From NCBI GenBank assembly GCA_028278025.1, contig JANQFE010000024.1, positions 11,128 through 75,127 on the forward strand: a stretch of DNA of 64,000 bases. The letters are read 5' to 3'. Below are positions 957 to 34,185 of this stretch, one piece after another. Source of the stretch: Thermodesulfobacteriota bacterium (lineage in GTDB: Bacteria > Desulfobacterota > WTBG01 > CAIYCZ01 > CAIRTM01). A program made the translations under genes and the position numbers. The notes beneath the pieces were generated by a model. The model was not told where the DNA came from and searched no databases. It worked only from the letters and a program-made list of their open reading frames with translations. Every line of letters starts with the position of its first letter. The first letter of the stretch is position 1.

Positions 957-1141
957 TTTACGTCCTCCTGATAAACAATCAGCCAAAGTATCTATCATTT
1001 CATTAACGTATAGCTGCTTAAATTTCAATAAAAATCAATTTATCTTTGGTTGCACCCGGATAGACTTTTGACATGCATACAATATTGATGTATAGGGAAA
1101 GTGTTTCAAGTAATATAACCTGTCAAAAAAAGGTAAGACGT

Positions 1142-1642
1142 ATGAATGTTTACAAGCATATTACTTTGGGGGGGCTGCTGATTATTTTGTTTTGTGCCTT
1201 CACCGCTTGTGCCCGCTACGGGTGTGTGCGGGGCAGCTGTGAGTATGGGCAGGGAATTTTTAAATGGCCTGAAGGTTCAAAATATATCGGAGAGTGGAAA
1301 GACAGCTTCAGGCATGGTAAGGGAATGTACGTATGGTCCGACAACACTAAATATGTTGGCGAATGGGTATTTGGCGAAGAGCACGGTCAGGGCACGCGCA
1401 TATGGCCTGATGGATCACAGTACGCCGGCGAGTGGCAACAGGGCAAAGAGGAAGGTCTGGGTATGCGCACATGGCCGGACGGCAGAAAATTCATCGGGGA
1501 ATGGAAAGCAGGTGTAATACACGGACGGGGAATGCGCGTATGGCCCAACGGCCGAAAATATATCGGCACATGGAAAAATGGTAAACGGGACGGCGAAGGC
1601 ACATTCATCCCCCCTGACGGCGAGTTGCCCGTTCTCGAATAG
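1142..1642 (+). CDS. MORN-repeat lipoprotein
   Basis: Signal peptide with lipobox (LFCAFTAC). Five or six tandem ~23-aa MORN repeats (YxGEWKdgxxHGxGxxxWPDG). Confidence 0.7.
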   Translation: MNVYKHITLGGLLIILFCAFTACARYGCVRGSCEYGQGIFKWPEGSKYIGEWKDSFRHGKGMYVWSDNTKYVGEWVFGEEHGQGTRIWPDGSQYAGEWQQGKEEGLGMRTWPDGRKFIGEWKAGVIHGRGMRVWPNGRKYIGTWKNGKRDGEGTFIPPDGELPVLE

Positions 1643-1710: not shown

Positions 1711-3033
1711 TTAAGCAACACCAGCCTGCCTTTCAAAGTCCACCGGGGATTCCTTCAGGAAAAAAGCCGAGACGGCCGCGCAGAAGGCCAGCAACGACCA
1801 GAACAAAAATACCCTGCTGAAATCATATGCCCCGTCCGGCAGGCTGATGACCAGGTAGCCCGATATCAGAGGAGACACAAAGGAGCCGAACTGACCGATG
1901 CCGTTGGTGATGCCCATGGCCCGTCCCACAACCTCCTTGGGATAGCGCAGAGAGGGGAATGCCTGCATAACGCCCCAGGGAAAATTTACAAAAAATCCGC
2001 CAAACGCCAGCGCCAGCAGAAGGAGGCCGGTTTCGCCTTTGGGTACCTGCCCGATAAAGTAAAGGACCGGAATACAGCCCAGAAAACCGATTATGGAAAC
2101 GGCCTTCATGCGGCCCTGAAACAGTTTGTCGGCCACAAAGCCCCCCAGCCACATGGCAAAGCCGGCAATGAGGTAAGGCATGGCAGCGAAAAAGCCCATA
2201 GTTTTGACGTCCATGCCGTGCTGCTTAACGAGGAAAGTACTGATCCAGGTGGTCATCCCCCAGTAGATCATCAACAGAATGAAAAAATTCAGGGTAAAAA
2301 GGTAGTACTGTAAATCGGTCAAAAAAATCTTCGTGCTGAATTGTTTACCGTGGATTTCAGCCCCTTCGCCTACTGATGAGGTTATCAGTTCGTATTCATC
2401 CTGGGTCATTTTACCTTTCTGCAGCATTTCTCCGGGAACGTCGGCCATAAATTTTTGCAGCAGGTAGATGCCCACTAGACCGGGAACAGCCAGAACGAAA
2501 AAAACGGGGCGCCAGGCACCGTCAAAGATTTCAGCAGAAAGCCAGGTAACAACAATCGGAATGATGGCCGGACCGAACGCCCAGGTTGTCGTAAAGTATC
2601 CGTTGGCCTGCCCCTTTTCGTGGCGGGGAAACCAGTTGGCAATGGTCCGCACGGCCGGCACATAGTGGTGTCCTTCTCCGAGGGCCAGGCTGATGCGCAG
2701 GATAATAAACTGCCAGAAGGTCCGTACAAAACCGGTCAAAAAGGTAACGGCCGTAAACACCCATATGGCAATGTTCATGGTTTTTTTGGGGCCGATTTTA
2801 TCTGAAAGATAACCCGATGAGAGCTGAGCTACCGCATAACCGAAAAAGAAGATGGAGCCCAGCCAGCCGATTTCCACAGGGGTCAGGTTAAGGTCTTTCT
2901 GAATATAGGGCAGGAAAATCAGGACGCTGATACGGTCAAAGTAATTAATGATATAGAGCAGCCAGATAATAAATAAAATCGTCCAGCGATATCCCCAAAG
3001 TCGTTTTGTCTCCGACACTACGGTATTACCCAT
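1711..3033 (-). CDS. MFS transporter (anion:cation symporter-like)
   Basis: Twelve TM helices; MFS signature GYLSDKIGPKK; GAGGGAGG ribosome-binding site before the ATG at 3033 (the track start at 3054 is a TTG). Confidence 0.8.
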   Translation of the reverse strand: MGNTVVSETKRLWGYRWTILFIIWLLYIINYFDRISVLIFLPYIQKDLNLTPVEIGWLGSIFFFGYAVAQLSSGYLSDKIGPKKTMNIAIWVFTAVTFLTGFVRTFWQFIILRISLALGEGHHYVPAVRTIANWFPRHEKGQANGYFTTTWAFGPAIIPIVVTWLSAEIFDGAWRPVFFVLAVPGLVGIYLLQKFMADVPGEMLQKGKMTQDEYELITSSVGEGAEIHGKQFSTKIFLTDLQYYLFTLNFFILLMIYWGMTTWISTFLVKQHGMDVKTMGFFAAMPYLIAGFAMWLGGFVADKLFQGRMKAVSIIGFLGCIPVLYFIGQVPKGETGLLLLALAFGGFFVNFPWGVMQAFPSLRYPKEVVGRAMGITNGIGQFGSFVSPLISGYLVISLPDGAYDFSRVFLFWSLLAFCAAVSAFFLKESPVDFERQAGVA

Positions 3034-3657
3034 TAAAACCTCCCTCGGGCGCAATAGCCACTATTTATTTGTTAGAGACTATGATAACATTTAGTTGAAA
3101 GGAGCATCCTTGTCGGGCTAGAGCATGCTTCTGTTCTCTATAGCCCTTGAGCACTGCGAAGGCTGAGGTGGTAAGAGCAACTGCGGTGGTGCCAGCGATG
3201 GACGATATAGTTAATTCTGGATACTCCGGCGAGCACATAGCCGCATGTAATCTAACCGCATCAGCCTTCACAGTGCTCAACTGTGAGGCTACACTTTTTT
3301 GCAAAATGCTCTAAAAAACCCATAAATCTTTAAACATAATTTCTAAAACAAGGAAAAACTCTCTAATTCTCTAGAATCTATCATAGTCTCTACCCCTTAT
3401 CCATCTTTTTAACGATCCAATGTGGATTTCACAAAAGGAATTATTATGTATCACAAACCAGCTACTCCGGCAGCATCTGGATTCATCTCCACATAAAAAA
3501 CTCATTTTACATGCAATAGGTATTATTACTTATGAAAAAATGAGCTTTTATACGCATAGAAAATGCCCGGAAATACAAGTAAACAAATTAAAATAACATA
3601 CAGCCTGCACGACCGGCACTTAAGAAACTTTGTAGCAGTTATATTACTGTGAGAAAT

Positions 3658-5808
3658 ATGCAAAGCATTCTTTCCAGCAATACAGTGAAATCATTTATAG
3701 ATTATATTTCATTTCTGCGTGAAGATTTAGTGCTTACCAAAGATGTGTGCCTGGCCCGCAGCACTCCACAGGGTCCGGAAAAAATTGATGTGCTTTTTCC
3801 CAAAGGGAAAATAGAAGAAAATAAAATAGATGAAGCGTTCAGGCTACAGGAGGCAGACAAATGTGTACTTTTCTTTGAGAGTGATCTTTTCGATTACTTC
3901 AGTTTTAAAGAAAAAGCCCTGCTGAAATGTTTATACAGTGATGCAAAACAGGTGTTTACCTCTTATCCGCTTGCAGCAATTGACGTTGAAGAAATCAAGC
4001 AGGATTTTCTGGCCTTTATTGAAAACATGGATCATAAAAGCCCTACCCTTACCGATCTTCACAGAATCAAAGTTCTGGCCCCTTCAATGTATACCTCTGC
4101 TTTAGCAACCTCGCTCATCAGTATAATGATAAGTAAATACTTTGGTGAAACTACAGGCAGCATTTACTGGGATAAAAACAAAATTGCTTATGTTGGATAC
4201 GCAGGTCTCCTATGCAATATAAGTTTAAGTAAAGCAGGCATGTATGAGCTTCTTGACCTTGATTGTCAGGACCGAGATACTATTGAAAAAAAATATTCCT
4301 GGATAAGGATTAAGAATCACCCCAAGGAAAGTGCGGCTATTATTCTCAACGAGTTAACCCGGAGAACTCATGATGATGAAAGCAACAGGGAAATAAGTAA
4401 GGCGGTAGAGTTGCATCATGAAAACCTTGACGGGAGTGGTTATTATGGATTGACAGAAGAGTCTGTTCCTCCTGTCTCAAGAATACTCCGGGTTGCGGAA
4501 TGTTATAGTGCTATGACCAATGCAGGCTATATCAAAGCTAAAAATAAGATCAAACACATCTCTGAGGCCCTCGCCGAACTGCATCGTAGATCAGGTGCCT
4601 GGTATGATCCTGCAATAGTGGCTGTTTTTACCCATTTTTTTAAAGATAATAAAAAACTGCGCAAAGCCAATCCTTCTGAAAAAAGTGTTCTTTTCAAAAA
4701 TTACTTTCTTTTGGAAGATGCCCTTGTCAGGCAGGCAGAAAAGCTGAAAGGCAAAACAGAACAAAGGGAATTACATCATTTCAGATTGTCATTAAAGGAT
4801 CGATTAAAGCTCACCCATAACGCCCTGCTTAACCTGGAACACACGTATATAGCCAAACTGGTTACAGAAGCTGCTTTCATAGCTGCAAGTCATATTTTTC
4901 ATGAAGTAAATAATGCAACATCCATGATAACAGGCAGTTTTGATATGTTCTATGAGGACTTTTTACAGGACAATAAACACTGTATTGAAGATGAACGGGT
5001 GATGAGGGTAGCCGACGAATTAAAACACGTTATTTTCCTCATTAAAACTTCTTCACGGCTGAAGCAAGATCACCCCTGCCATACGAAATCAGATAAGCTG
5101 CTTGCCTTAAGAGGTTTAGAAATCGAGCAGCAACTTGAAAGCCTGCGCCGCTGTCTGATGCTGATAGACAAGATGTGCAGAACACTGCAAGCTCAACTCT
5201 ATTCAGATGCTGCTCAAGCCGGTTGCCCAAGGTTAGCCACTATAAGTGCTGAAGGCAAAAATTATCTCCAGGCTATGTTGTTAGGTGTACAGTCGGCATT
5301 AGAAAAAACCTATTTCTTTACTGAGCAGACAAAAAAAGAGTGTAATATTAATGTATTATTAGAACAGGCCCTCAAACTGATTCAGCGCAACCCCCTTTAT
5401 AGCACTCAAAGTCGTATCATCAACATAGAAAAAAACTTCAGTCCTGATATTATCGTTTCTATTTATCCGGTTCAGATTATGTGTGTTATTGAGAACATAC
5501 TCTACAATGCGTATCATGCCATGAAAGAATCGGGCGGCATACTGCAGGTCAGCACAGAATATAATGGTAAAACCGTTATCGTCATGATAAAAAATACCGG
5601 TCCTCGCATACCGACCCATGTGCTTGTTAACATGTTTACCCCCGGCTTTACAACTAAGCAAGAAAAAGAAGGCCGGGTTGGTGGTCGTGGATTTGGTCTT
5701 TCAAATTCACTGAATATCATGCGTGCTCATGGCGGAGATCTACGCTGTGTTTCAACCGATAGTGAAAAAACAGCGTTTTATCTGATTCTGCCTGGCAGGC
5801 TTCAATAA
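3658..5808 (+). CDS. Sensor histidine kinase fused to a degenerate HD-GYP-like domain
   Basis: Central 'THDDE...ELHHENLDGSGYYGL' matches the HD-GYP signature HHExxDGSGYP with GYY in place of GYP. Downstream H-box (SHIFHEVNNATS) and C-terminal HATPase_c (G-boxes: GGRGFGLSNS...AHGGDL). Confidence 0.7.
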   Translation: MQSILSSNTVKSFIDYISFLREDLVLTKDVCLARSTPQGPEKIDVLFPKGKIEENKIDEAFRLQEADKCVLFFESDLFDYFSFKEKALLKCLYSDAKQVFTSYPLAAIDVEEIKQDFLAFIENMDHKSPTLTDLHRIKVLAPSMYTSALATSLISIMISKYFGETTGSIYWDKNKIAYVGYAGLLCNISLSKAGMYELLDLDCQDRDTIEKKYSWIRIKNHPKESAAIILNELTRRTHDDESNREISKAVELHHENLDGSGYYGLTEESVPPVSRILRVAECYSAMTNAGYIKAKNKIKHISEALAELHRRSGAWYDPAIVAVFTHFFKDNKKLRKANPSEKSVLFKNYFLLEDALVRQAEKLKGKTEQRELHHFRLSLKDRLKLTHNALLNLEHTYIAKLVTEAAFIAASHIFHEVNNATSMITGSFDMFYEDFLQDNKHCIEDERVMRVADELKHVIFLIKTSSRLKQDHPCHTKSDKLLALRGLEIEQQLESLRRCLMLIDKMCRTLQAQLYSDAAQAGCPRLATISAEGKNYLQAMLLGVQSALEKTYFFTEQTKKECNINVLLEQALKLIQRNPLYSTQSRIINIEKNFSPDIIVSIYPVQIMCVIENILYNAYHAMKESGGILQVSTEYNGKTVIVMIKNTGPRIPTHVLVNMFTPGFTTKQEKEGRVGGRGFGLSNSLNIMRAHGGDLRCVSTDSEKTAFYLILPGRLQ

Positions 5809-5849
5809 AACAAGGAAAAGGACGGAATTTTCTATTGCTTCTACACCCG

Positions 5850-6506
5850 CTAAGGGAATACAGCCACATATCCCTTGGAGATAGCATATTTAACAAGATC
5901 GGCAGTGTTTTTTAAATGTAGTTTGCCGAGCAGATTAGCACGGTGTCTTTCTACGGTTCGCACACTAATAAAAAGAAGTTCCGCAATCTCCTTGTTGCTT
6001 TTACCCTCGGCAATCAGTTTTAAAACCTCCCTCTCGCGGGGTGTGAGCGGCTCTGAAGGAAGTTGTGTGTTGCCTTGATACAGCTGAGATAAGTCCTCTG
6101 CCAGCTCCCCTGCGAGCAGACGAGTCACGTAAATACCGCCTTTTCTGATGGTCTCTATTGCAGCAAAAAGTTCAACATCAGAGTCCTCCTTCACCAGATA
6201 TCCCTGGGCCCCGGCTGAAATGCAATGATAGAGATATTCTTTGTTTCTGTGCATGGTCAGTATTAACACCTTTACATCAGGGTATAACATCCTTATTTCC
6301 CGCGTGGCTTCAATTCCCCGGAGGCTTGGCATTGAGATATCAAGGATAACCATGTCCGTTCCTGCTGTTTTCAAAAGGCTCATAAGTTCAAGACCGTCAC
6401 TTGCTTCTCCCGCCACCTCCAGACCGGGTATTTCTTCAATTATTTTTCGCATGCCGTGCCGAAAAATTACATGATCATCGGCAAGCACAACACGATACGG
6501 ATTCAT
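5850..6506 (-). CDS. Response regulator, NarL/FixJ family (REC + LuxR-type HTH)
   Basis: Receiver domain (VVLADDH...DMVILDISMP...LILT); C-terminal LuxR HTH (LTPREREVLKLIAEGKSNKEIA...SVRTVERHR); AGGAGG ribosome-binding site; 4-bp overlap with the upstream kinase. Confidence 0.9.
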   Translation of the reverse strand: MNPYRVVLADDHVIFRHGMRKIIEEIPGLEVAGEASDGLELMSLLKTAGTDMVILDISMPSLRGIEATREIRMLYPDVKVLILTMHRNKEYLYHCISAGAQGYLVKEDSDVELFAAIETIRKGGIYVTRLLAGELAEDLSQLYQGNTQLPSEPLTPREREVLKLIAEGKSNKEIAELLFISVRTVERHRANLLGKLHLKNTADLVKYAISKGYVAVFP

Positions 6507-8014
6507 ATACTGCCTCCTGTATTTTCTATAGGGACCGTTAGCGTAATTCTGGTCCCTCTATCCGGTTTGCTCCACACATCACACGTTCCACCGACCATGT
6601 ATGAACGCTCCCGCATGGTAGCTAACCCCATACCCTTATCGGCAGCCCCTCTGCTTATTAAACCATTCAGGTCAAACCCTTTGCCGTCGTCCTCTACCAC
6701 AAAGACTATCTGCCGGTTCTGCTGTTCCACGGTGATGAAGATATTTTTCGCCAGGGCATGTTTCACTATATTAGTAAGTGTCTCTTGAAAAATTCTGTAC
6801 AGGTTAATCTGGACATCCTCAGAGAAAAGGTGATCAATATCCTGCACGTCTAAAGAAATCTTGAAAGAATGCTGCTTGGCAAAATTTTCTACCTGCCACC
6901 GAAGGGCGGCGGTAAGACCAAGATCTTTCAGAACCGACGGGCTCAAATCTCTGGAGAGGCGGCGGACATTTTCGATGATTTCATCCACATATCTGCTTGT
7001 TTCCTGACAGTCTTTTATGAGTGCTGCCTGGTGTTCAGCAAGCTTTCTTGTAATCGATCTCAGTCGTAACTTTAAAAGAGCCAAATCTTGCCCCAGTTCA
7101 TCATGCAGCTCTATTGCCAGCCGTTTTCTTTCTTCCTCCTGTGCCTGCAAAAGCTTTGAGGACAAAACCCGCAGCCGTTCTTCTGATTTGCGCAATTCCA
7201 CCTCACGAGCCTGTAATGACTGCGTCATCGCATTGAAGGCTTGGGCAAGTTTTCCGATTTCATCATCAGTCTCAACGGGAAGCATGTCTACTGTGCTACC
7301 TTTTCCTAAAGCTTTCACACCATCTGTTAACCGGTTTAAAGGACGTGTTATCCCCCGTGATACAAGATAGGCAACTCCGGCACTAAGCAATAAAAAAAGT
7401 GTTCCTATGAGAATACTTTGAAACAATAAATCGTTGAGTTGTTTGCTTAATATTTTTTTATCAACAGTAATCCCGACAAAGCCTATTATACGGTTCCTTC
7501 TTTGCAGATACTCATCTCTGAAAAAAAGGGCTTCCTCCTGCATATAGTGTAAACCTGTCATTACCGGTTTCCAGAATTCAAATGTATCCCTATTCTCACG
7601 TAGCACAGAAGACCCGGCTTGTTTAAGATCTGCAAAAAGATGCCGGTTGTTTTTTCTATCTGCCGTTGTTTGTTTTTCCGGCCAATATGTACCTGGCCGT
7701 TCCAGCTTCTTAAGCACTTTTCCTTCCAGATTACAGATAATTACTTGCAGAACCGCGTCCTGTTGAAAAACTCCGTCAGCAGGGGCATTGAGCAGTTCCA
7801 AGTTTTCGGAAAACACACCAATACGTGAGTTGTGGGCCAGGATGCCTACAAGCAGGTGGCCTTTATGTATCAGACTGTCTGTCAGGGTTTTTCTCTGATT
7901 GTGGATAAAAAAAATTGAAAGGCAACAATAAATGGTGACAATAAAAACAGCAAGTTTAACAAAGACCTTTATAGCAAAATTTTCATTGAAGGCCTTCATG
8001 AAATTTAAATTCAT
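6503..8014 (-). CDS. Sensor histidine kinase, NarX/DegS-like (HAMP + HisKA_3 + HATPase_c)
   Basis: N-terminal TM, HAMP, HisKA_3 H-box (LAIELHDELGQDLALLKLRL), HATPase (VVEDDGKGF...GMGLATMRERSYMVGG); operonic with the response regulator. Confidence 0.85.
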   Translation of the reverse strand: MNLNFMKAFNENFAIKVFVKLAVFIVTIYCCLSIFFIHNQRKTLTDSLIHKGHLLVGILAHNSRIGVFSENLELLNAPADGVFQQDAVLQVIICNLEGKVLKKLERPGTYWPEKQTTADRKNNRHLFADLKQAGSSVLRENRDTFEFWKPVMTGLHYMQEEALFFRDEYLQRRNRIIGFVGITVDKKILSKQLNDLLFQSILIGTLFLLLSAGVAYLVSRGITRPLNRLTDGVKALGKGSTVDMLPVETDDEIGKLAQAFNAMTQSLQAREVELRKSEERLRVLSSKLLQAQEEERKRLAIELHDELGQDLALLKLRLRSITRKLAEHQAALIKDCQETSRYVDEIIENVRRLSRDLSPSVLKDLGLTAALRWQVENFAKQHSFKISLDVQDIDHLFSEDVQINLYRIFQETLTNIVKHALAKNIFITVEQQNRQIVFVVEDDGKGFDLNGLISRGAADKGMGLATMRERSYMVGGTCDVWSKPDRGTRITLTVPIENTGGSI

Positions 8015-9032
8015 TTATAGTCCCTCGTTTTACTATACGGGTTGTCCCCATTATTTTTTCATTAATCGGGACATTTAATTTATGAACAATCTTTTGGTTA
8101 ACTGATATAACAGCTTTTCGGGCAATTTGCTGATTAATGGAGACCACTGCCAAACGGGCGTCAGCCTGCGCAACCTTATGTGCTTTAATTCCTGAAAGTA
8201 TTGCTGCCGCCATCTCCCCTGCCTGAGCGCCCATATCAAAGGCGTCTATACCTATTGACATTAACGCTCCCAGCTCTACATACTTTTCTGAAAAAGCAAG
8301 AATAGGTATATTGTGTTCAAGGGAGAAAAGAAGCATAAACTCAATTGTCTCCGGCGTAATAAGGGTGGTATCGGGCAACATCCAAAAAACGTCTATTTTT
8401 TCTTTCATCTCCATGAGTGCTGAAGGGACAACGCCGGAGTTGTGAACTTGCCCTGCAACCAGCACAACACCGTTTATTGCCGCTGCAATGCGGGCTTTAT
8501 CTGCAAGATGACCTGTCTTATCCGGGTCATACAAAAGACCGATAGTTTTTATGTCAGGCAAAACATTAATAAGTGAAAATAATTGTCTTTCTATCGGTAT
8601 ATGCATACTGACACCGGTGATATTCTCTTCTTGAGAAAGGATGGTGTGGGGATTCAGTACCATAAGGTACACAACCGGTAGGTCTTTAATCCTTTTTACA
8701 AGGGAGAGGGCATCGGGACCTATGGCAAGAATAATATCGGGCCTCCTTGCCCTGAGCTCCTTGACCACATCGGCACCTCCCGATTCGGAGATAACCAGCC
8801 TGGAAACAACAGCGTTGCTGACACTCTTAAACCCTTTAAGGGCTTCCTCATATGGCGCTATCCTGCTGCTTTGAACGGCCACGATCTCCTGGCGGGCTTC
8901 CACCGACAGTGCCCAAAGAAGTATAATAAATATTATTGAAAAAAGAACCCTAGGTCTTGTATTCCTAGATTCGCACTTCCTCTTAATGTTTAACCTGAAA
9001 TCTGCTTTGAACGATATTTTCGCATTACCCAT
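7983..9032 (-). CDS. Periplasmic substrate-binding protein (ABC_sub_bind/PF04392-like) associated with the two-component system
   Basis: Signal peptide, periplasmic-binding-fold pattern, overlaps the start of the kinase gene; AAGGAGGG ribosome-binding site before the ATG at 9032. Confidence 0.65.
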   Translation of the reverse strand: MGNAKISFKADFRLNIKRKCESRNTRPRVLFSIIFIILLWALSVEARQEIVAVQSSRIAPYEEALKGFKSVSNAVVSRLVISESGGADVVKELRARRPDIILAIGPDALSLVKRIKDLPVVYLMVLNPHTILSQEENITGVSMHIPIERQLFSLINVLPDIKTIGLLYDPDKTGHLADKARIAAAINGVVLVAGQVHNSGVVPSALMEMKEKIDVFWMLPDTTLITPETIEFMLLFSLEHNIPILAFSEKYVELGALMSIGIDAFDMGAQAGEMAAAILSGIKAHKVAQADARLAVVSINQQIARKAVISVNQKIVHKLNVPINEKIMGTTRIVKRGTINEFKFHEGLQ

Positions 9033-9183
9033 CACACATTTCCCTCCTTTATTATTACATAATGTGTAGTTTCAATTTTGTATTTAGTATAAAAGACTGA
9101 TTTAATCGCTTGTATAAAAAAACTATATTTATTACTATACGGTAAGGCCCGCTTGCGTATAATTGTAAACAATAAAAGGTTAC

Positions 9184-11136
9184 ATGTACAGGGTTTTATT
9201 CAAAAAACGAACTTCGCTGGCAGGTTTTGCTTTAAGCATTATTTTTTTATGTCAATGTCAAAATGCCGGTGCTCAGTCTGAAGAAGAACTGAAAACGCTT
9301 CTTATGTTCTATAATGAAAAGGACCTTGTTATTTCACCCACCCGATCTCCAAAACCGGTATCCCTGGTTGCAGAAAATATCACCGTCATTACAGCTAAAG
9401 AGATAAAACAGCTTAATGCTCATACTGTTGCCGAAGCTCTCAACAGAATACCAGGCCTTTTTGTCGATTCTTTTGGTAATGATTTCGGCAGTGTTTCTTT
9501 TCTCAATATTCAGGGGTCCGAACCCAGGCATGTCCTGGTCCTGGTGGATGGAGTTCGCTGGAATTTTCTTTCAGACGGGTTTGCCGAGACTAATTCCATT
9601 CCCGTGGGCATTATCGAGCGGATTGAAATCATTAAAGGCCCTGCTTCATCAACCTGGGGCTCATCTCTGGGGGGTGTCGTTAATATTCTTACAAAACCTG
9701 CCGGTAAAGGCGTGAAGCCGACCGGTTTAATCCAGGCCTCCTACGGCAGAAGCAAATCGCAGGATTATCGGGCAGAGGTGGACGGCCGGGTTGGCTCTGT
9801 CGGGTATTACCTCCACGCAGCCCTGCAGGATTCCAGGGGCCTGAGATCTTCCAGAGCTTTTGAGAACGAAAGTCTTTATGCAAAATTCGACATACCGCTT
9901 TCACATTACGGCGACATCACCTTAAGCGCAGGGTATAGTGCCCCGCGCAATCATTTTGGGAAATTTCCAAGTGAAGGCTTGACTTCAAAGGGAACCATTC
10001 GTACTTTTTTCGCAACTGCTTCCCTGGATGTCCCGCTCACTAAAAAATTAGAGCTGCACATGTCACTGCATACAACCAGGCAGAAACACGCACAGGCCCA
10101 TGATGTCTTGGAAACCGGCTCTAAAGGCTCGTCAGGGGAACGTTATTTGGACAATATTCATGATGAAACAACAATCGGGGTCCGGGCTAAACTTGTCTGG
10201 AACCATAGGCAACACTTGATTGTGTGTGGAGCCGACTTTGATCACGGGCATCTTGAGCAGAAGCTTAAGGCCGGCCAAGCTCTTCAACTGGCCAGAGTTC
10301 CGGCAGTAAAGCGCTCCCACCCCCATATTGACCGGTGGGCCCTCTATGCTAATGATACGCTGAGCCTGGGCCGGTGGTCCTTCACCCCCGGCTTCAGGTA
10401 TGACCATGACGATATTACCGGCTCTTTCTTTAGTCCGAGCCTGGGTATTACCTGGAGACTTGGCGATAATACAATCTTTAAAGCTTCCATCGCCCGGGGG
10501 TTTTCCAGTCCTGCGCTCTCGTGGACATCGGCAGGGGGGCTGTTCCTGGAGCCGAATCCTTCTCTGGAACCGGAAACAGTGTGGTCATACCAGGCTGGAA
10601 TAGAATCAGCCGTGGCTGACTACCTGTGGCTAAAGGCCGTTGCTTTTCGCCATGATGTAAAAAATGCCATAACCGGGGAACGTTTTGCTACCGGACCGCC
10701 AACATTTAATGACCGCCTTGTGAATGGAGGGAAAACAAGACGGCAGGGCTTTGAGCTGGAGGCGGAAACACTGCCGCTGTATCATGTATCATTTCGGGCA
10801 GGAGTTTCCCTGGCACACATTACACCTTCCAATGAACGGGGCGCGCGTCACGTGTACACCTATAATATCGGGCTTGTATATGATGATATGCACTCGCTGA
10901 CTGTCCACCTTTCAGGCTATTATATATGGTGGAACTACGATTCCATATATCAGGCCGAGTACAAAAATTTTATCTGGGATATTAATCTCATCAAGACGGT
11001 TTTTACAAACAGAAAGTATTCCGGGGAATTTTTTTGTACAGCACACAACATTTTTAACGGCTCACAGTATACTCTGGGTGATTATAAGAATCCCGGTAAA
11101 TGGTTGGAAGTCGGGATGAGATTCATGTTTAACTAG
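9184..11136 (+). CDS. TonB-dependent outer-membrane receptor
   Basis: Signal peptide; plug domain with a TonB-box-like region; NRIPGLFVD...IERIEIIKGPASSTWGSSLGGVVNILTK is the classic TBDR plug motif; ~650 aa beta-barrel. Confidence 0.85.
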   Translation: MYRVLFKKRTSLAGFALSIIFLCQCQNAGAQSEEELKTLLMFYNEKDLVISPTRSPKPVSLVAENITVITAKEIKQLNAHTVAEALNRIPGLFVDSFGNDFGSVSFLNIQGSEPRHVLVLVDGVRWNFLSDGFAETNSIPVGIIERIEIIKGPASSTWGSSLGGVVNILTKPAGKGVKPTGLIQASYGRSKSQDYRAEVDGRVGSVGYYLHAALQDSRGLRSSRAFENESLYAKFDIPLSHYGDITLSAGYSAPRNHFGKFPSEGLTSKGTIRTFFATASLDVPLTKKLELHMSLHTTRQKHAQAHDVLETGSKGSSGERYLDNIHDETTIGVRAKLVWNHRQHLIVCGADFDHGHLEQKLKAGQALQLARVPAVKRSHPHIDRWALYANDTLSLGRWSFTPGFRYDHDDITGSFFSPSLGITWRLGDNTIFKASIARGFSSPALSWTSAGGLFLEPNPSLEPETVWSYQAGIESAVADYLWLKAVAFRHDVKNAITGERFATGPPTFNDRLVNGGKTRRQGFELEAETLPLYHVSFRAGVSLAHITPSNERGARHVYTYNIGLVYDDMHSLTVHLSGYYIWWNYDSIYQAEYKNFIWDINLIKTVFTNRKYSGEFFCTAHNIFNGSQYTLGDYKNPGKWLEVGMRFMFN

Positions 11137-11156
11137 AGCCTGTGAATAAGTAGTTT

Positions 11157-11190
11157 TACGTATAAAAAAATGCGTATTTTTACGCATAGA
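11157..11190. promoter_or_regulatory. Operator-like repeat array TACGTATA-N6-TGCGTAtttttACGCAtaga
   Basis: Palindrome TGCGT-N7-ACGCA plus a third half-site, ~130 bp upstream of the precursor ORF. Related TGCGTATA motifs occur at 9151 (TonB-dependent receptor promoter), 3549 (minus strand) and 45871. Confidence 0.3.
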
Positions 11191-11318
11191 CCTTGCAATA
11201 AAAAATTTAGTATGGTTAGTACCATCAAACAGGCAACTCTTGAACAAACAAATGCTGTACCCCTGCTCAATATGGGCGGGGATATCCTCATAATCATTAC
11301 ACAAGAAAGGAGACGTTT

Positions 11319-11441
11319 ATGAAGGAAAAGAAAAATGAATCCCAGGAAATCGTCGTCCTTGATGAAGGTATTGATATCAACAGTATAGACGACAGCCCGG
11401 ATGCTTGCTGTTATTCTTCAATAGGCCCCATAAGGGTTTAA
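11319..11441 (+). CDS. Candidate RiPP precursor peptide (40 aa: MKEKKNESQEIVVLDEGIDINSIDDSPDACCYSSIGPIRV)
   Basis: Missed by the ORF track because it is under 60 aa. AAGGAG ribosome-binding site 6 nt upstream; acidic leader-like N-terminus; C-terminal core with adjacent cysteines; a stem-loop with a U-run (possible attenuator) follows directly; ~50 nt upstream of an rSAM-SPASM maturase gene. Confidence 0.45.
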   Translation: MKEKKNESQEIVVLDEGIDINSIDDSPDACCYSSIGPIRV

Positions 11442-11450
11442 CCCTTCAGA

Positions 11451-11480
11451 ACAGAGGGCGATAAGGACCTCTGTTTTTTT
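11451..11480 (+). terminator. Intrinsic terminator/attenuator-like hairpin between the precursor ORF and the rSAM gene
   Basis: ACAGAGG-GCGATAAGGA-CCTCTGT followed by TTTTTTT. Confidence 0.5.
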
Positions 11481-11491
11481 ATCTTACCTAT

Positions 11492-13672
11492 ATGCAGTAT
11501 TCTCATTACCTTAAAGTATTTCCTTCCGAGGGAAATTCTGACCATCTACTGCTCTATTCGACAAAAAAGGCTTCATTGATTTCACTCAAGAAAGCAACCT
11601 ATAAAGCCGTCAAGGACGGCAAGCTGACCCTTGCTCATGAAGCCTTACTGACAAAACACGGCATGCTTGTTGAGGATCAACACAATGAAAAGCTCAGGAT
11701 GCTCGGTTTTATCAGTGAACGTAATGCTACAAGCACCTGTCTGCACATGACCGTCGTCTTAAACCTGGATTGCAACTTTGCCTGCCGCTACTGTTTTGAA
11801 GAAGAGGTGAAAGGCAAACATTACATGTCGGATGCAACAGTAAATCATCTGATACATTTCATCAAAGAGAAATTTACTGAAGATAAAAAATCTGTCGTCG
11901 TAGATTTTTATGGGGGGGAACCGCTGCTCAGTATTGAACATATAAAGACCATTTCCCGGGCAATAAATTGTTTGACTGAAACCCGGGGGGCTTCTTACAG
12001 ATTTATGCTTGTCACCAACGGTTCACTTTTTACAAGGCCGGTTGCAGAAGACCTGGTTCCCCTTGGGCTTGAAAGTGTAAAAGTAACTCTGGATGGTCCG
12101 GCTGAGGTCCACAACAAATCCCGACCTTTCAAATCGGGTGCCGGCAGCTTTAATACCATCATTCATAACATAACCCGGACCTGCAATCTGGTAAAAATCA
12201 TTATAGGAGGAAATTTCAATAAAAATACTTTTGCTAAGTTCCCGGCACTTCTTGATCATCTGGAAAAAAAGGGCCTTGCTCCTGATACATTAGCCAGTGT
12301 GAAGTTTGATCCGATAATGAAGAACCCTCAGTCTTCTGCAGCACCTTTTAGCTGTTTCGAAGGGTGCCTGTCCATTAATGAACCGTGGATTTCAAAGGCC
12401 GAGAAACTCTTGCGTGAAGAAATTTTAAAAAGAGGCTACAACACTCCCAAACCACGACCTATGCATTGTATGATAGAAACGTTACATTCCTATGTTGTGA
12501 ACTTTGATGGTGTTATCTATAAGTGCCCTGGGTTTATCGGAAAAAAGGACTTTGCAATTGGTGATGTTCATAAAGGCATACAAGATTATACATCCATTTA
12601 CAAAATAGGGTTCTGGAAAAACACAGAATGCGTTGAATGCACCTATCTGCCTATGTGCTATGGGGGCTGTAGGTACATGGCATTTATACGTGATGGGCAT
12701 ATAGACAACATTGATTGCAAAAAAGAATATCTTGACGGGTCCCTTGAAAGGCTAATCAAGCAGGACTTGAAATACAGAGAAAAGGCCGGCTGCAACATAT
12801 CAAATCCAGACAATAGTGATGTACTTATGATTAACGATCTGTTTGAACAGCTTGGTCGGGTGTGTGCCCATCATTTTCCAACCCAATTTAAACAGTTTAT
12901 CCCCCCTTCACTAGAGAGAATAATTAAATCCTATAATACTATTGATAACGTAATTCAAACCTATATATATGGTAACAGCGCCGCTACGGCAAACAACTCG
13001 AGTTTTGTTGAACGTGCATTTATGGCAGTTGCCTCCATACGCTATCTTGACGATTTTATCGATAAGGCCCTGTGGCCCCACATTCCCAAATGCAATCCGG
13101 AAAAGCTGTCCCGGTTGTTTGATACATTTTTACAAAAAGCATTGGATACTGCCAGAAAATTTGATCCTTTCATGCCGGAAACTATAATTGAGCTTCCTCG
13201 CCTGGAAATGTATCTGGCCTTGAATCCCGGTCAGGAAAACTTTGACCGGTTTTTTAAAAAATTATTTATATATAAATCTTATGATATGTTTTACACCTAT
13301 CAGATTATCCATGAGGATAGTCTTGAGAGTATTAATCATACCAGACTGGTTAGACTTGCCTTAATTGATTATATCCGTGATTTCTCGGCTGATCATATAG
13401 CAACAGATACCGATCTTAATCTGTACAAGTATATTCGCGATAATAATATTAATCCACGAAAATTCATTGCATATTTAATGGATTGTTACCGACAGGAAGA
13501 CCCGCGCGGTTACAGGAAGGCTAAGAAACGTGGTTTTATTGATAGTGCAAACGATAGCAGACCTGCTGATGATGAAAACAAAAAGGCCGCTACCTCTCTT
13601 TCTTTTCATGAATCATTCCCCCTGCTTTTTAATAGAGCTATATCTCTGCTGCAAAAGCTTTTACCCGACTAA
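11492..13672 (+). CDS. Radical SAM/SPASM-domain peptide-modifying enzyme with an N-terminal RRE-like domain and a ~300-aa C-terminal extension of unknown function
   Basis: CNFACRYC (Cx3Cx2C) radical SAM motif; C-terminal SPASM-like Cys cluster (CPGF...CVECTYLPMCYGGCRY); ~85 aa winged-helix-like N-terminus before the rSAM core (PqqD/RRE-like); residues ~430-726 have no recognisable motif. Confidence 0.8.
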   Translation: MQYSHYLKVFPSEGNSDHLLLYSTKKASLISLKKATYKAVKDGKLTLAHEALLTKHGMLVEDQHNEKLRMLGFISERNATSTCLHMTVVLNLDCNFACRYCFEEEVKGKHYMSDATVNHLIHFIKEKFTEDKKSVVVDFYGGEPLLSIEHIKTISRAINCLTETRGASYRFMLVTNGSLFTRPVAEDLVPLGLESVKVTLDGPAEVHNKSRPFKSGAGSFNTIIHNITRTCNLVKIIIGGNFNKNTFAKFPALLDHLEKKGLAPDTLASVKFDPIMKNPQSSAAPFSCFEGCLSINEPWISKAEKLLREEILKRGYNTPKPRPMHCMIETLHSYVVNFDGVIYKCPGFIGKKDFAIGDVHKGIQDYTSIYKIGFWKNTECVECTYLPMCYGGCRYMAFIRDGHIDNIDCKKEYLDGSLERLIKQDLKYREKAGCNISNPDNSDVLMINDLFEQLGRVCAHHFPTQFKQFIPPSLERIIKSYNTIDNVIQTYIYGNSAATANNSSFVERAFMAVASIRYLDDFIDKALWPHIPKCNPEKLSRLFDTFLQKALDTARKFDPFMPETIIELPRLEMYLALNPGQENFDRFFKKLFIYKSYDMFYTYQIIHEDSLESINHTRLVRLALIDYIRDFSADHIATDTDLNLYKYIRDNNINPRKFIAYLMDCYRQEDPRGYRKAKKRGFIDSANDSRPADDENKKAATSLSFHESFPLLFNRAISLLQKLLPD

Positions 13673-32213: not shown

Positions 32214-33614
32214 TTATAGGGCTCTTAAGAATGCTACCAGAGCCTTTTTTTCATCCTCAGTGAGTTTAAGTTTTTGAATTAAGTTAAAAAATTCAATCGT
32301 GTCTTCCAGTGTCAGCAGCCTGCCGTCATGCAGGTAAGGCGGGGAATCCTTTATGCCGCGCAGCGGGAATGTTTTGATCGGTCCGTCTGCGGATGCCATC
32401 CTGCCGTTTATCATCTGGGGTTTATAGAACCGTTCGGTTTTCAAATTATGCATCATATTATCTGTATAATAAGGCGCCGGATGACAAACCATGCACTTTG
32501 CCTTGCCAAGAAAAAGCGCTTCGCCCTGTTTTTCCAGCTGGGTAGCTTTTGCTTTGTCCAGTTTTCCGTAAATATTCAGTTTGGGTGCAGGTGGGAAATC
32601 TAATATATTTTGGAACTCACCCATAAAATGGGCCTGGCTGCCCCGTTCAAGGACGTTGACGCCTTTTTTGGTGGCAATAACCGGGTCACCGTCAAAATAG
32701 GCCGCCCGCTGCTCAAATTCAGTAAAATCTTCAACAGATTTCAATCCGCGCTGGGAGCCAAACAACCTCTGAATGTTGACACCCCGCAGGCTGGGAGTAT
32801 CAATACGATGTCGAAATTTCTGGGGGCGTATGTCACCGACAAGATGGGTAGCCGCATTTGTATGTCCATTTACATGACAGTCAAAGCAGGTGACTCCCAG
32901 GCTCGGCTTTGCAGAACGCCGGTCTTCGGTTGCGTTAAACTGCTGCTGTGGAAACGGTGTCAGCAGCAGCCGGAGACCTTCAAGCTGTTTGGGATTCAGG
33001 ATACCGTTAAAAAGCTCAAAAAAGTTATCAGTCGTAACCACCTTACCCTGGGAAACGTCACCGAGGTCCGGTCGTGTTGTCAGGTAAATGGGCGGTGGAA
33101 AGTCCGGCAGCAGGTGATCGGGCAAATCAAAATCCAGGTCAAACCGTGTCAGATCGCGACCGGTCTGCTTTTTTATTTCCTGAATATGAAATACGGGGAA
33201 GACCATGCCGCCTTCAGAATGATGGGGGTGCGGTAGCGGCATGAATCCTTGCGGGAATAGCCCTTTTTGTCGAATCTCTTCCGGGCTCATGTTCCCCAGC
33301 TCCTGCCAGGTGATGCCTTTGGGCAGCTTGGCCCGGACACCCTCCTGGACAGGCTTACCCCCCGACATGGTAACATCTTTTGCCGGCCTGTTGCTGAGAT
33401 CATAGCGCTGATCCAGCAGTTTCTCCTGCCGTTTCATGACGTCACTTTTTTCGTCCTTCATTACGGCCATGGATTCTGAAAAGGGTTTCGTGATAACCAC
33501 GGGGGCATAGCTGCTTGCTGCCTTCTCAGCACCACAAGCAATGCCCGGTGCGGCCGCAGTAATAAGTACTGTACATACCAGAAAGACTCCTATCAATGGG
33601 CGTTTACGCTTCAT
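32214..33614 (-). CDS. Di-heme c-type cytochrome, cytochrome c peroxidase-like
   Basis: Signal peptide; two CxxCH motifs (CFDCH, CMVCH); AAGGAG ribosome-binding site before the ATG at 33614. Confidence 0.6.
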   Translation of the reverse strand: MKRKRPLIGVFLVCTVLITAAAPGIACGAEKAASSYAPVVITKPFSESMAVMKDEKSDVMKRQEKLLDQRYDLSNRPAKDVTMSGGKPVQEGVRAKLPKGITWQELGNMSPEEIRQKGLFPQGFMPLPHPHHSEGGMVFPVFHIQEIKKQTGRDLTRFDLDFDLPDHLLPDFPPPIYLTTRPDLGDVSQGKVVTTDNFFELFNGILNPKQLEGLRLLLTPFPQQQFNATEDRRSAKPSLGVTCFDCHVNGHTNAATHLVGDIRPQKFRHRIDTPSLRGVNIQRLFGSQRGLKSVEDFTEFEQRAAYFDGDPVIATKKGVNVLERGSQAHFMGEFQNILDFPPAPKLNIYGKLDKAKATQLEKQGEALFLGKAKCMVCHPAPYYTDNMMHNLKTERFYKPQMINGRMASADGPIKTFPLRGIKDSPPYLHDGRLLTLEDTIEFFNLIQKLKLTEDEKKALVAFLRAL

Positions 33615-34185
33615 CACCTATTCTCCTTTCTCTTACAGATTATTATACGGTTTTGTTGCTTCCCTATTCCTTATGATCCATCACCTCCTCTCTTAATCTG
33701 ACATTTGCATACTAAAACACGACACAGCGGACCGGTGTGCATCCGCCCTGAAAGAACAAGTCCGCACAGAGGCACTGTGCCGCTGTATGGTTTTTATGAA
33801 AACGATAAAAAGAATGTATTCATGTACCCCGTTTGCATGTATATCCTAGGTAGTCTGGTACTAACCGACAATCAAAACTGTGGATCAGAGGCTGGGCGCG
33901 TACCTGTTTGGGCGGCAAGGGCAGTGCGAGCCTCAGCCTGAACTATACTAATAGTCGTTCCAGCGAGCATGTTGCCCGCAGCAATCAAGCAGGGGCGCGC
34001 CCAGCTTACACCCAATGTTACTTGTCCAGAAGTACCAGAATGAATTTGAATGCAAGAACCCGCCAGAGCCTTTTTTGTTGCGCAGGTGGAAGCATCTGCA
34101 CGTCATAGGGCTTTTAATCACGTCTTCCTATTTATTAGTTATAAAAACTAAATAGTAGTAATTACTATTTTACAACCAAAAAAAT

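Follow-up and report, generated by a model that had tools for sequence, protein, structure and literature searches.

The gene under study lies on the forward strand at positions 3658–5808 of the window, the 64-kb stretch of DNA analyzed here, and encodes, from an ATG at 3658, an uninterrupted frame of 716 amino acids. An alternative GTG start at 3649 (3649–5808, same strand) gives a protein of 719 amino acids, the form in which the identical protein is already on record in a 179-kb NCBI contig (P0001), and the same protein sequence was recovered a second time, independently, from an SRA assembly. The protein is predicted to be soluble, without a transmembrane segment (maximum of 1.7 in a 19-residue Kyte-Doolittle window, reached inside the CA domain). 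[quoted passage not shown] An N-terminal α/β region (residues approximately 1–125, 3658–4032), delimited by AF2 secondary structure and the family alignment, is followed by an HD-GYP-type domain with a remodeled active site (residues approximately 130–335, 4045–4662; Pfam HD_5 and hhalign), the translated sequence of which contains the GYP-loop motif HHENLDGSGYYGL (residues 253–265, 4414–4452). A helical or coiled-coil linker (residues approximately 339–392, 4672–4833; AF2 helices 339–369 and 379–392) lies between this sensor domain and the kinase, which is composed of an atypical DHp region (residues approximately 396–552, 4843–5313; AF2 and Foldseek) and a CA (HATPase_c) domain (residues approximately 556–716, 5323–5805; Pfam HATPase_c). 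The N-terminal region is modeled as a helix, three strands, a helix, two short strands, and two or three helices (pLDDT approximately 70 to 85), and its conservation is confined, in the family alignment, to the six-member family described below. A Pfam search of this region gave no match at E≤10, and its identification as DUF3391 (PF11871), which would place the protein in the Bd1817 family (DUF3391-HD-GYP), was considered and found unsupported.

The preliminary description of this locus had reported a central HD-GYP-like module, and profile comparisons bore this out. The Pfam HD-GYP model HD_5 matched residues 217–320 well above its cutoff (E=3.4e-15, 56.6 bits against 27.2) in an alignment extending to profile position 170 of 170, and hhalign aligned the family profile with 48 canonical HD-GYP domains over 200 columns that cover the whole domain (probability 99.95%, E=9.7e-38). 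The generic Pfam HD model stayed under its cutoff in this protein (19.6 against 22), and HDOD gave no Pfam match. A generic HD or HDOD identity with intact metal ligands, the alternative named in that description, is thus ruled out by the HD_5 score and the hhalign result, and the ligands are not intact. At the level of sequence profiles, these results show that the central domain is of the HD-GYP type (the class defined by Pfam HD_5 and PROSITE PS51832) and homologous to such domains over its full length.

The active-site residues were scored by alignment to PmGH numbering. Three of the 8 metal ligands are identical (H250, H276, and H277 of PmGH, which are H221, H253, and H254 in the protein studied here), and the PmGH ligand D305 is a Glu. 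The HD dyad of PmGH (H221-D222) is fully replaced by C186-N187 (4213–4218), which lies in the segment LLCNISL encoded within 4207–4227. In addition, PmGH K225 corresponds to L190 and D308 to S284, and D183 corresponds to S143 in a stretch (PmGH 183–189) where the register is uncertain because hhalign and BLAST are off by a few residues; with the same local uncertainty, no His is available opposite PmGH H189. A Tyr occupies the position of PmGH E185, as in the binuclear Y/F subgroup. The loop HHENLDGSGYY keeps the HH ligands, the E, the DG, the G, and the substrate-contacting Tyr, and only the Pro of GYP is changed, to Tyr. In PmGH, the H189A, H221A, D222A, D183A, K225A, and D308A mutations essentially abolish activity, mutants in E185 and D305 retain residual activity, and P286A is hardly affected and stays active (PMC4159591). 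The degenerate catalytic apparatus that had been proposed for this domain was thus borne out, and because of it c-di-GMP hydrolysis by the domain is very unlikely; judged from these residues, it is almost certainly non-catalytic. Two details of the earlier account did not hold. The HD residues are not partially retained, since the dyad is fully replaced and what is kept are the three other His ligands. Likewise, degeneracy cannot be read from the GYY that replaces GYP, because GYY or GYE is also found in HD-intact HD-GYP proteins (P0161, P0173, and P0168) and the P286A change leaves PmGH active; we dropped it as evidence of inactivity.

The protein belongs to a family of six members that share 31% to 35% identity and are the sole relatives found among 1.84 billion representatives. 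When the full protein was used as query, a word-indexed homolog search returned only the protein itself and generic matches, and with the family profile it returned only P0001 and P0013. Scans of genome and metagenome contigs with the family alignment gave no family member among the matches listed, which were dominated by the generic HHE..DG.G pattern, and these scans say little on the true distribution of the family. Two relatives altogether lack the CA domain. Within the six proteins, N187, the His triad, the HHE..DG.GY motif, E281, and Y291 are invariant. The first position of the former HD dyad varies (C, C, S, S, A, and K), and the second is an invariant Asn, so that the D222N and D305E substitutions (PmGH numbering) are fixed across the family. 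Altogether, the alignment shows that the replacement pattern is fixed in this small family and is not random. Former functional positions are invariant in 11 of 20 cases, against 15 of 186 positions elsewhere in the domain (six sequences at approximately 30% identity, Fisher p=1.2e-6), which, together with the two fixed substitutions, points to a selected pocket rather than decay at the former active site.

We also analyzed the kinase core, which the preliminary description had called a complete HisKA/HATPase transmitter. The HATPase_c part is clear (E=1.1e-14, 55.2 bits with the cutoff at 26.4, residues 606–712), and most CA boxes are intact: the N-box residue N617, the F-box residue F660, and the glycines of the G2 box GRGFG (676–680) agree with 136 to 145 of 145 related kinases. 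The G1 box reads NTGPR (5593–5607) instead of DxGxG. This could suggest a pseudokinase, a reading that we rejected because an Asn variant of the G1 box occurs in 14 of the 145 related kinases and the remaining boxes are intact. Pfam HisKA gave no match in the protein at E≤1, and the relative P0009 has a sub-threshold HisKA match (E=5e-4) at the aligned H-box. The predicted phospho-acceptor is His415 (codon 4900–4902), identified from the H-box sequence FHEVNNA and the family alignment. The His-acidic dyad H415-E416 sits in the DHp helix 396–438 of the AF2 model and is shared by 4 of the 5 family members whose sequences extend to the H-box, P0012 having a Tyr. The second DHp helix is formed by residues 531–552, and the insert of roughly 70 to 90 residues in the DHp region includes a helical pair (446–470 and 479–515). 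Foldseek matched the model to the DHp+CA fold of HK853 (E=6.5e-9) and, over 230 to 255 columns and with probability 1.0, to HK853, WalK, and ZraS (E=6.5e-9 to 2e-8). The claim of a transmitter therefore stands for the HATPase_c domain, the H-box, and the overall fold, but not for a Pfam HisKA domain, and the DHp insert and the G1 box set this core apart. It looks like a functional class I kinase core, with every motif that His415 autophosphorylation would need.

The surroundings of the gene were searched for signaling partners. No cognate response regulator was found in the operon or in the 64-kb window, where the sole receiver belongs to a convergent LuxR-type regulator (5850–6506) that is co-operonic with a HisKA_3 kinase. 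A motif scan of the window found no GGDEF, EAL, or PilZ gene, and no Rfam family, such as a c-di-GMP riboswitch, matched the 600-bp upstream region. The metabolism encoded in the window is that of an anaerobe (AFOR, 2-oxoacid:ferredoxin oxidoreductase, and Fe-S proteins), and the neighboring AFOR has approximately 70% identity to 'Deltaproteobacteria bacterium' MAG proteins. Among the relatives, P0009 is the closest, and its gene immediately follows that of a REC-Sigma54_activat-HTH_8 regulator. This neighbor and the H-box type suggest that the partner of the kinase is probably an NtrC-type regulator. A KaiC-like/V4R/ThiF neighborhood is conserved beside three relatives and has no counterpart in the 64-kb window. 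The contig of one relative carries an archaeal-type Pelota gene.

We propose that the input module is an HD-GYP phosphodiesterase domain that would have lost catalysis and been remodeled for binding or sensing. The putative pocket would be formed by His221, His253, and His254 (the 'G-site' triad of PmGH), Asn187, Glu255, Glu281, Tyr262, and a clamp of Tyr291, Leu185, and Met286, and the leading candidate ligand would be a cyclic dinucleotide, c-di-GMP for instance, for which a single retained metal ion may provide an anchor. From the occupied pocket, the signal would pass along the domain's C-terminal helices and the coiled-coil linker (339–392) into the DHp and there switch His415 autophosphorylation, along with the transfer of the phosphoryl group to a response regulator whose gene lies elsewhere. 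That a non-catalytic HD-GYP-derived input domain sits on a working kinase is, in our judgment, likely. For the fuller statement, a soluble orphan class I kinase with a non-catalytic, HD-GYP-derived, ligand-sensing input for which c-di-GMP is a candidate, we see the chances as even. Against it stand the missing cognate regulator in the operon, the two relatives without a CA domain, and the uncertain register around PmGH 183–189.

The identity of the ligand is where the proposal is most tentative. Part of the nucleotide-binding surface is preserved, including the GYP-loop Tyr and the aromatic and hydrophobic clamp residues. For the 8 canonical-site contacts of DvhD (Y652, L577, M646, E668, Y621, K582, R650, and Y523), 4 to 5 equivalents were found (Y291, L185, M286, and Y262, with Y145 tentative). 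PmGH binds c-di-GMP with the G-site metal alone occupied (PMC4159591). However, the charged contacts are lost: K582, R650, and E668 of DvhD are replaced by L190, A289, and R311, and the PmGH nucleotide contacts R314, K317, and K225 by A289, I292, and L190. Across the six family members, the R314 position is A, R, S, S, R, and A. The lack of GGDEF, EAL, and PilZ genes in the window also weighs against c-di-GMP, as does the archaeal-type Pelota gene on the contig of one relative, given that this signaling system is regarded as bacterial. The suggestion of the preliminary description that the domain senses rather than hydrolyzes c-di-GMP thus holds for a degenerate domain in input position, whereas c-di-GMP sensing itself is plausible but unproven because neither the charged contacts that PmGH makes with the nucleotide nor those of DvhD are preserved; we regard c-di-GMP as the specific ligand as a possibility somewhat on the doubtful side.

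The invariant residues are exactly the metal-proximal ones, and the contacts to base and phosphate (R314, K317, and K225 in PmGH) have disappeared, which would fit a sensor of metal, redox state, or gas rather than of a nucleotide. His221, His253, His254, Asn187, and Glu281 would then form a mononuclear Fe, Mn, or Zn site of which the occupancy, oxidation state, or ligation (Fe(II), O2, or NO) controls the kinase. HD scaffolds are described as binding mono-, di-, and trinuclear metal centers with varied chemistry (PMC8177086). Such a sensor would also suit the anaerobic metabolism encoded in the window and would be compatible with archaeal family members, c-di-GMP machinery and signaling being regarded as limited to bacteria. 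Yet a pure metal sensor would have no need of Tyr262 or of the nucleobase clamp Tyr291/Leu185/Met286, all of which are likewise invariant or retained. No literature precedent was found for an HD-GYP domain acting itself as a metal or gas sensor, and in the known examples sensing of this kind is done by a separate hemerythrin or globin domain. We consider this explanation unlikely. A broader formulation, in which the fixed Asn/3-His/Glu site and the Tyr-lined pocket would define a new HD-GYP-derived class of sensor for a ligand other than c-di-GMP (Fe(II), O2, or NO at a mononuclear metal, or another phosphorylated or nucleotide signal), attached to a kinase with a four-helix-extended DHp in a family that may span bacteria and archaea and in which some members have lost or split off the CA domain, also appears improbable to us.

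The domain might instead bind no small ligand and serve as a scaffold for protein-protein interaction or dimerization, a role suggested for inactive RpfG-family proteins, PA2572 (YN-GYP), and HnoD, with the signal entering through the N-terminal region or a partner. Inactive HD-GYP proteins are known to work by protein-protein interactions, the interaction of RpfG with GGDEF proteins is mediated by the GYP loop, the conserved N-terminal domain of the family could be the true sensor, and the KaiC-like ATPase neighbors of three relatives could be partners, although these neighbors are missing from the 64-kb window. However, the buried residues of the former active site (the His triad, Asn187, and Glu281) are invariant at approximately 30% overall identity, which a role in surface interaction alone would not predict; we regard the scaffold reading as unlikely too. 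A bifunctional enzyme, in which a still-active hydrolase of c-di-GMP or another phosphodiester is fused to a kinase, is highly improbable: HH, E, DG, G, Y, and the H250 equivalent are kept and single ligand losses are tolerated (the E185 and D305 mutants of PmGH, and RpfG, reported active without one His), but D183, H189, H221, D222, and K225, the change of any of which to Ala abolishes PmGH activity, are all missing at once, D308 with them, and PA2572, with a similar change of HD to xN, has a regulatory role and no detectable c-di-GMP hydrolysis (PMC3411652). Equally remote is a decaying or non-functional remnant, such as one left by a horizontally acquired gene. The gene has the lowest GC3 value of the window (0.379; window mean 0.524, z=-2.3) and no operon partner, and the family is extremely rare, all of which might suggest a remnant. 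Yet the 716-codon frame is intact and the kinase motifs are likewise preserved, pocket residues are conserved family-wide, and the identical sequence was independently recovered in the SRA assembly.

The preferred reading, a non-catalytic HD-GYP-derived input on a working kinase, concerns a tiny, undescribed family, and the idea behind it, a dead enzyme domain reused as a sensor, is already well known. In the searchable literature we found no histidine kinase whose input had been shown to be an HD-GYP-type domain. Should c-di-GMP be bound, the protein would connect the second-messenger pool directly to a phosphorelay by a kind of receptor undocumented for kinases; should it be another ligand, the domain would represent a new sensor type. 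In practical terms the gain is modest, with six representatives among the 1.84 billion, from uncultured organisms, but the analysis provides a testable residue map (N187, H221, H253, H254, Y262, E281, and Y291) and corrects the tempting notion of GYY as a marker of degeneracy.

The combination of HD-GYP and a kinase in one polypeptide had been called uncommon, and it is, but it is not unique: 12 other 50%-identity cluster representatives with this combination, several of them degenerate, were present among the best 150 matches. Uncharacterized fusions of HD-GYP with HATPase_c are found in P0015, P0017, P0048, P0050, P0054, P0076, P0077, P0115, and P0116, and in reverse order in P0002, P0014, P0121, and P0133. 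Their HD or HH residues are degenerate in P0015 (HT, HR), P0048 (RW), P0077 (QD, GF), P0054 (RD), and P0116 (YD). These fusions differ from the family described here in their degeneration patterns, in the GAF or PAS domains between sensor and kinase, in the canonical Pfam HisKA where tested (P0002, P0048, and P0050), and in lacking the N-terminal region and the DHp insert. Among kinases regulated by c-di-GMP, CckA reportedly senses the molecule through its CA domain, which is not of the HD-GYP type. RavS and SgmT are also modulated directly by this second messenger (PMC6707612, PMC3509222), the logic that the preliminary description put forward for the protein studied here. They sense it through a PAS domain and a GGDEF I-site, respectively, and neither is of the HD-GYP type. 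With the canonical phosphodiesterases PmGH (4MCW), PA4781 (4R8Z), and V-cGAP3 (5Z7C), the domain has in common the fold, the HHExxDGxGY loop, the H250 equivalent, and the C-terminal helices, and it differs from them in the 5 non-identical metal ligands out of 8 and in the loss of D183, K225, the structural D308, and the base contacts R314 and K317. PA2572 of Pseudomonas aeruginosa resembles it in the change of the HD dyad to x-Asn, but there the domain, with GYP intact, is the output of a response regulator (REC-(YN-GYP)), whereas here it is a kinase input with CN and GYY. Dead enzyme domains that act as second-messenger receptors are central to c-di-GMP biology, as in LapD and FimX (EAL) and PelD (GGDEF). 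Since 2026, DvhD has added HD-GYP to these reused domains. In this Desulfovibrio vulgaris protein, a degenerate HD-GYP domain is a metal-free c-di-GMP receptor (PDB 9RBZ/9RC0, PMC13090378). As in DvhD, metal-dependent catalysis appears to be lost and the HD-GYP fold kept; in DvhD, however, the HH pair is also lost (to MN) and binding occurs via K582, R650, and E668, whereas here HH is kept and it is those three positions that are replaced. DvhD is a dCache-PAS-HD-GYP membrane protein whose signal goes outward, to a periplasmic protease, and the protein described here is predicted to be soluble and to signal to its own fused kinase core.

The kinase gene was an uninterrupted forward-strand ORF starting at 3649 (GTG) or 3658 (ATG) and ending at 5808, which gives a protein of 719 or 716 amino acids, respectively; residues are numbered here from that ATG. 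An identical protein (P0001) has been recorded once, on a 179-kb NCBI contig, plus one SRA assembly, and its 90%-identity cluster has no further member. No 19-residue window outside the ATP-binding (CA) domain was sufficiently hydrophobic for a membrane helix, and the protein is thus predicted to be cytoplasmic. The HD-GYP model of Pfam (HD_5) matched with E = 3.4e-15 and 56.6 bits (cutoff 27.2), while generic HD stayed under its cutoff and HDOD was not reported at E ≤ 1, which bears out the HD-GYP-like module of the preliminary description. This match spanned only profile positions 77–170, the C-terminal half of the model (residues 217–320), and the motif quoted earlier, HHENLDGSGYYGL, is indeed encoded at 4414–4452. 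The complete HisKA/HATPase transmitter proposed for the other half of the protein stood in part: HATPase_c was matched at residues 606–712 (E = 1.1e-14), but HisKA was not reported by Pfam at E ≤ 1. In NCBIfam, AtoS/ZraS-type kinases and an RpfG-like phosphodiesterase were the only matches, each of them partial and far below threshold.

We then compared the domain with PmGH, a characterised HD-GYP phosphodiesterase (PDB 4MCW, whose chain numbering equals that of the paper +6, as verified at five landmarks of the printed alignment). In the PmGH paper (PMC4159591), the metal ligands are E185, H189, H221, D222, H250, H276, H277, and D305 (n = 8), D183 and K225 are catalytic, D308 is structural, and Y285, R314, and K317 contact the substrate. 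Activity is abolished by alanine at D183, K225, D308, and every ligand but E185 and D305, and is little affected when the GYP motif, R314, or K317 is mutated. The kinase retains H250, H276, and H277 (as H221, H253, and H254), together with E278 (E255), Y285 (Y262), and Y316 (Y291). D305 corresponds to E281, and the E185 position to Y145, the typical residue of the binuclear Y/F subgroup. The remaining sites have changed: D183 to S143, K225 to L190, P286 to Y263, D308 to S284, R314 to A289, and K317 to I292, with no histidine at the H189 position (a gap by hhalign, S147 by BLAST alignment to the HD-GYP protein P0168). The HD dyad, previously thought to be partly retained, is replaced at both positions (H221 by C186 and D222 by N187). 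With 3 of the 8 PmGH ligands identical, one more conservatively replaced, and five individually essential residues jointly absent, hydrolysis by this domain would be very unlikely, judging from the mutagenesis of the homolog, and the outline of a degenerate HD-GYP domain feeding a kinase was right.

The emphasis placed on GYY was misplaced. Two stand-alone HD-GYP proteins from outside the window, P0161 and P0173, have an intact LLHDIGK motif yet carry HHENLDGSGYYG, and P0168, also from outside the window and with its HD motif intact, carries GYE, so the proline of the eponymous motif varies in a whole subgroup; PmGH P286A is still active (PMC4159591). GYY is thus meaningless, and the informative changes are those at the HD dyad, H189, K225, and D183.

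When 1.84 billion cluster representatives were searched exhaustively with phmmer, only five relatives covered the N-terminal and HD-GYP-like region (P0009 to P0013; 31–35% identity, E = 1e-53 to 1e-26), and all remaining matches reached the generic kinase or HD-GYP part only. P0010 (663 aa) and P0011 (665 aa) have the full architecture, and P0009 and P0012 end after the region resembling the phospho-acceptor helices (DHp), without a CA domain. In P0013 the architecture is split over two ORFs, a sensor half and then a separate 287-aa HATPase_c protein (contig from JGI sample 3300075153, genes at 1756–3006, 3087–3950, and 5050–6105); an adjoining Pelota/eRF1-type gene on this contig suggests an archaeal host. 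Across the six-member alignment the HD position reads CN, CN, SN, SN, AN, and KN, the GYP position is GYY in five members and GYP in one, and D305 is Glu in all. Invariant residues occupied 11 of 20 former functional positions versus 15 of 186 others in the domain (Fisher p = 1.2e-6), in a comparison of six sequences only whose functional positions are conserved superfamily-wide in any case. Even the residues that came in as replacements, Asn187 and Glu281, are fixed, and this pattern in the alignment indicates a site remodelled under selection rather than eroded. The contigs of the low-GC relatives P0010, P0011, and P0012 share a homologous small ORF (96–130 aa) directly upstream of a KaiC-like ATPase (PF06745), the common neighbours lying at 3035–5257 on L082 (P0011), 1644–2789 and 4651–5292 on L083 (P0010), and 2087–3074 and 5053–7692 on L164 (P0012). 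Two of these contigs also hold V4R, ThiF, and UbiE-type methyltransferase genes, and L164 bears four KaiC-like genes and a DUF835 gene; no counterpart of this KaiC-like/V4R/ThiF/UbiE/DUF835 neighbourhood was found within the window.

In the kinase half, the H-box (SHIFHEVNNAT, 4888–4920) contains H415-E416, which aligns with HD in P0009, P0010, and P0011 and with Tyr in P0012. The predicted model places H415 in a long helix (396–438), followed by two extra helices (446–470 and 479–515), the second DHp helix (531–552), and the CA domain, and this two-helix insert is probably why Pfam HisKA failed. The CA domain carries N617, F660, and GRGFG, and its G1 box reads NTGPR. We rejected a pseudokinase reading of this G1 box because the position, Asp in 131 of 145 related kinases aligned to the protein, is Asn in the other 14, which makes Asn a natural subtype and no evidence for a pseudokinase. 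We conclude that the transmitter, although atypical, is probably functional.

The gene stands alone, separated by a 600-bp AT-rich spacer (GC 0.38) from a divergent MFS transporter gene (1711–3054). Within the spacer lies a long imperfect hairpin of about 135 nt (3147–3281, +), with arms GAGCACTGCGAAGGCTGA (3149–3166) and its reverse complement (3261–3278), then a T-run; region 3100–3310 folded as RNA at -88.3 kcal/mol (z = -5.4 versus shuffles). The hairpin is single-copy in the window and matched no Rfam family, the sole hit being a sub-threshold, generic miRNA-precursor-like one. Downstream, the stop codon is 42 bp from that of a convergent LuxR-type response regulator gene (5850–6506, -), co-operonic with genes for a HAMP-HisKA_3 kinase (6503–8014, -) and an ABC_sub_bind periplasmic protein (7983–9035, -); a TonB-dependent receptor gene (9184–11136, +) diverges from this separate two-component module. 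The LuxR-type regulator has the only receiver (REC) domain detectable in the 64 kb. Because NarL/LuxR-type regulators usually pair with HisKA_3 kinases, the kinase of its own operon is its more likely partner. P0009, the nearest relative, which keeps the H-box without a CA domain, lies on the same strand directly downstream of a REC-Sigma54_activat-HTH_8 regulator (contig from JGI sample 3300042731, genes at 459–1799 and 2138–3685), and this NtrC-type sigma-54 neighbour hints at the partner class. An NtrB-like type is also indicated by the H-box (HE.NN) and by the top partial matches in NCBIfam (AtoS, ZraS), and our working guess is therefore an NtrC-type partner encoded elsewhere.

The GC3 of the kinase gene (0.379) is the lowest of 31 window ORFs (mean 0.524, z = -2.3), and its relatives sit on contigs of 33–40% GC. 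GC is lower than in the rest of the window throughout block 3055–13672, up to a radical-SAM gene (11492–13672, GC 0.406). Lateral acquisition of the kinase gene is possible, and the block may have been laterally acquired. The neighbouring AFOR gene is about 70% identical to 'Deltaproteobacteria bacterium' MAG proteins. Taken with the TonB-dependent receptor, this makes an uncultured Gram-negative anaerobe of Desulfobacterota type the most likely host, and such bacteria are a group rich in HD-GYP domains. The radical-SAM protein (+, 726 aa, Radical_SAM and Fer4_12) has a C-terminal extension of about 300 residues without a reported domain, and its 90% cluster consists of two 57-aa fragments only. 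Elsewhere in the window, ORF 1073–1642 (+) encodes a small MORN-repeat protein (189 aa, at least five repeats) whose N-terminal segment is hydrophobic, and ORF 60245–63871 (+, 1208 aa; choice-of-anchor I, IPT/TIG, metallophosphatase, and 5'-nucleotidase C-terminal domains) probably encodes a large surface-associated nucleotidase. ORFs 50316–54044 (+, 1242 aa) and 32214–33617 (-, 467 aa) had no Pfam match at E ≤ 1e-5.

As to what the domain might sense, we take the three retained histidines to be probably the G-site metal ligands, on our reading of the HD-superfamily two-metal site. PmGH binds c-di-GMP with the G-site metal alone present, and its Y285 hydrogen-bonds a c-di-GMP phosphate (both PMC4159591); the equivalent Y262 is invariant in the family. 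These points count for c-di-GMP, as does the Desulfovibrio vulgaris receptor DvhD, a degenerate HD-GYP (HD to SQ, HH to MN) that binds c-di-GMP without any metal (PMC13090378). Among the canonical-site residues of DvhD (n = 8; chain offset 490, verified at four landmarks), Y652, L577, M646, Y621, and tentatively Y523 have equivalents in the kinase, whereas the charged contacts are all replaced: K582 (PmGH K225) by L190, R650 (R314) by A289, R653 (K317) by I292, and E668 by R311. In DvhD, R650A and Y652A/R653A weaken c-di-GMP binding (PMC13090378). The loss of the charged contacts counts against c-di-GMP, as do the lack of conservation of the R314 position in the family, the suggested archaeal host of P0013 (c-di-GMP machinery being regarded as bacterial), and a motif scan of the window that picked up neither GGDEF nor EAL nor PilZ. 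Hence c-di-GMP is a reasonable but unproven guess, the residue-level evidence opposing a PmGH- or DvhD-like binding mode, and as the specific ligand it is a candidate only, one we rate as possible rather than probable.

According to the part of Galperin and Chou's article considered, HD-GYP is typically a C-terminal output domain in multidomain proteins, and kinase fusions go unmentioned in that running text, Table 3 aside. Our hit list, in which such fusions are favoured by construction since each of the two domains raises the score, contained 12 other cluster representatives with HD-GYP and a kinase CA domain. HD-GYP lay upstream of the kinase in nine, 5 of them with degenerate HD and/or HH motifs, and downstream in four. 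The list nonetheless shows independent recurrence of the combination; it is uncommon, as had been proposed, but not unique, and as far as searches went such fusions are uncharacterised in the literature. The non-catalytic HD-GYP domain would here be reused as a sensor, the input of a histidine kinase. Non-catalytic second-messenger-enzyme domains acting as sensors are a known theme, to which this kinase would belong as a case of histidine-kinase input, in a six-member orphan family.
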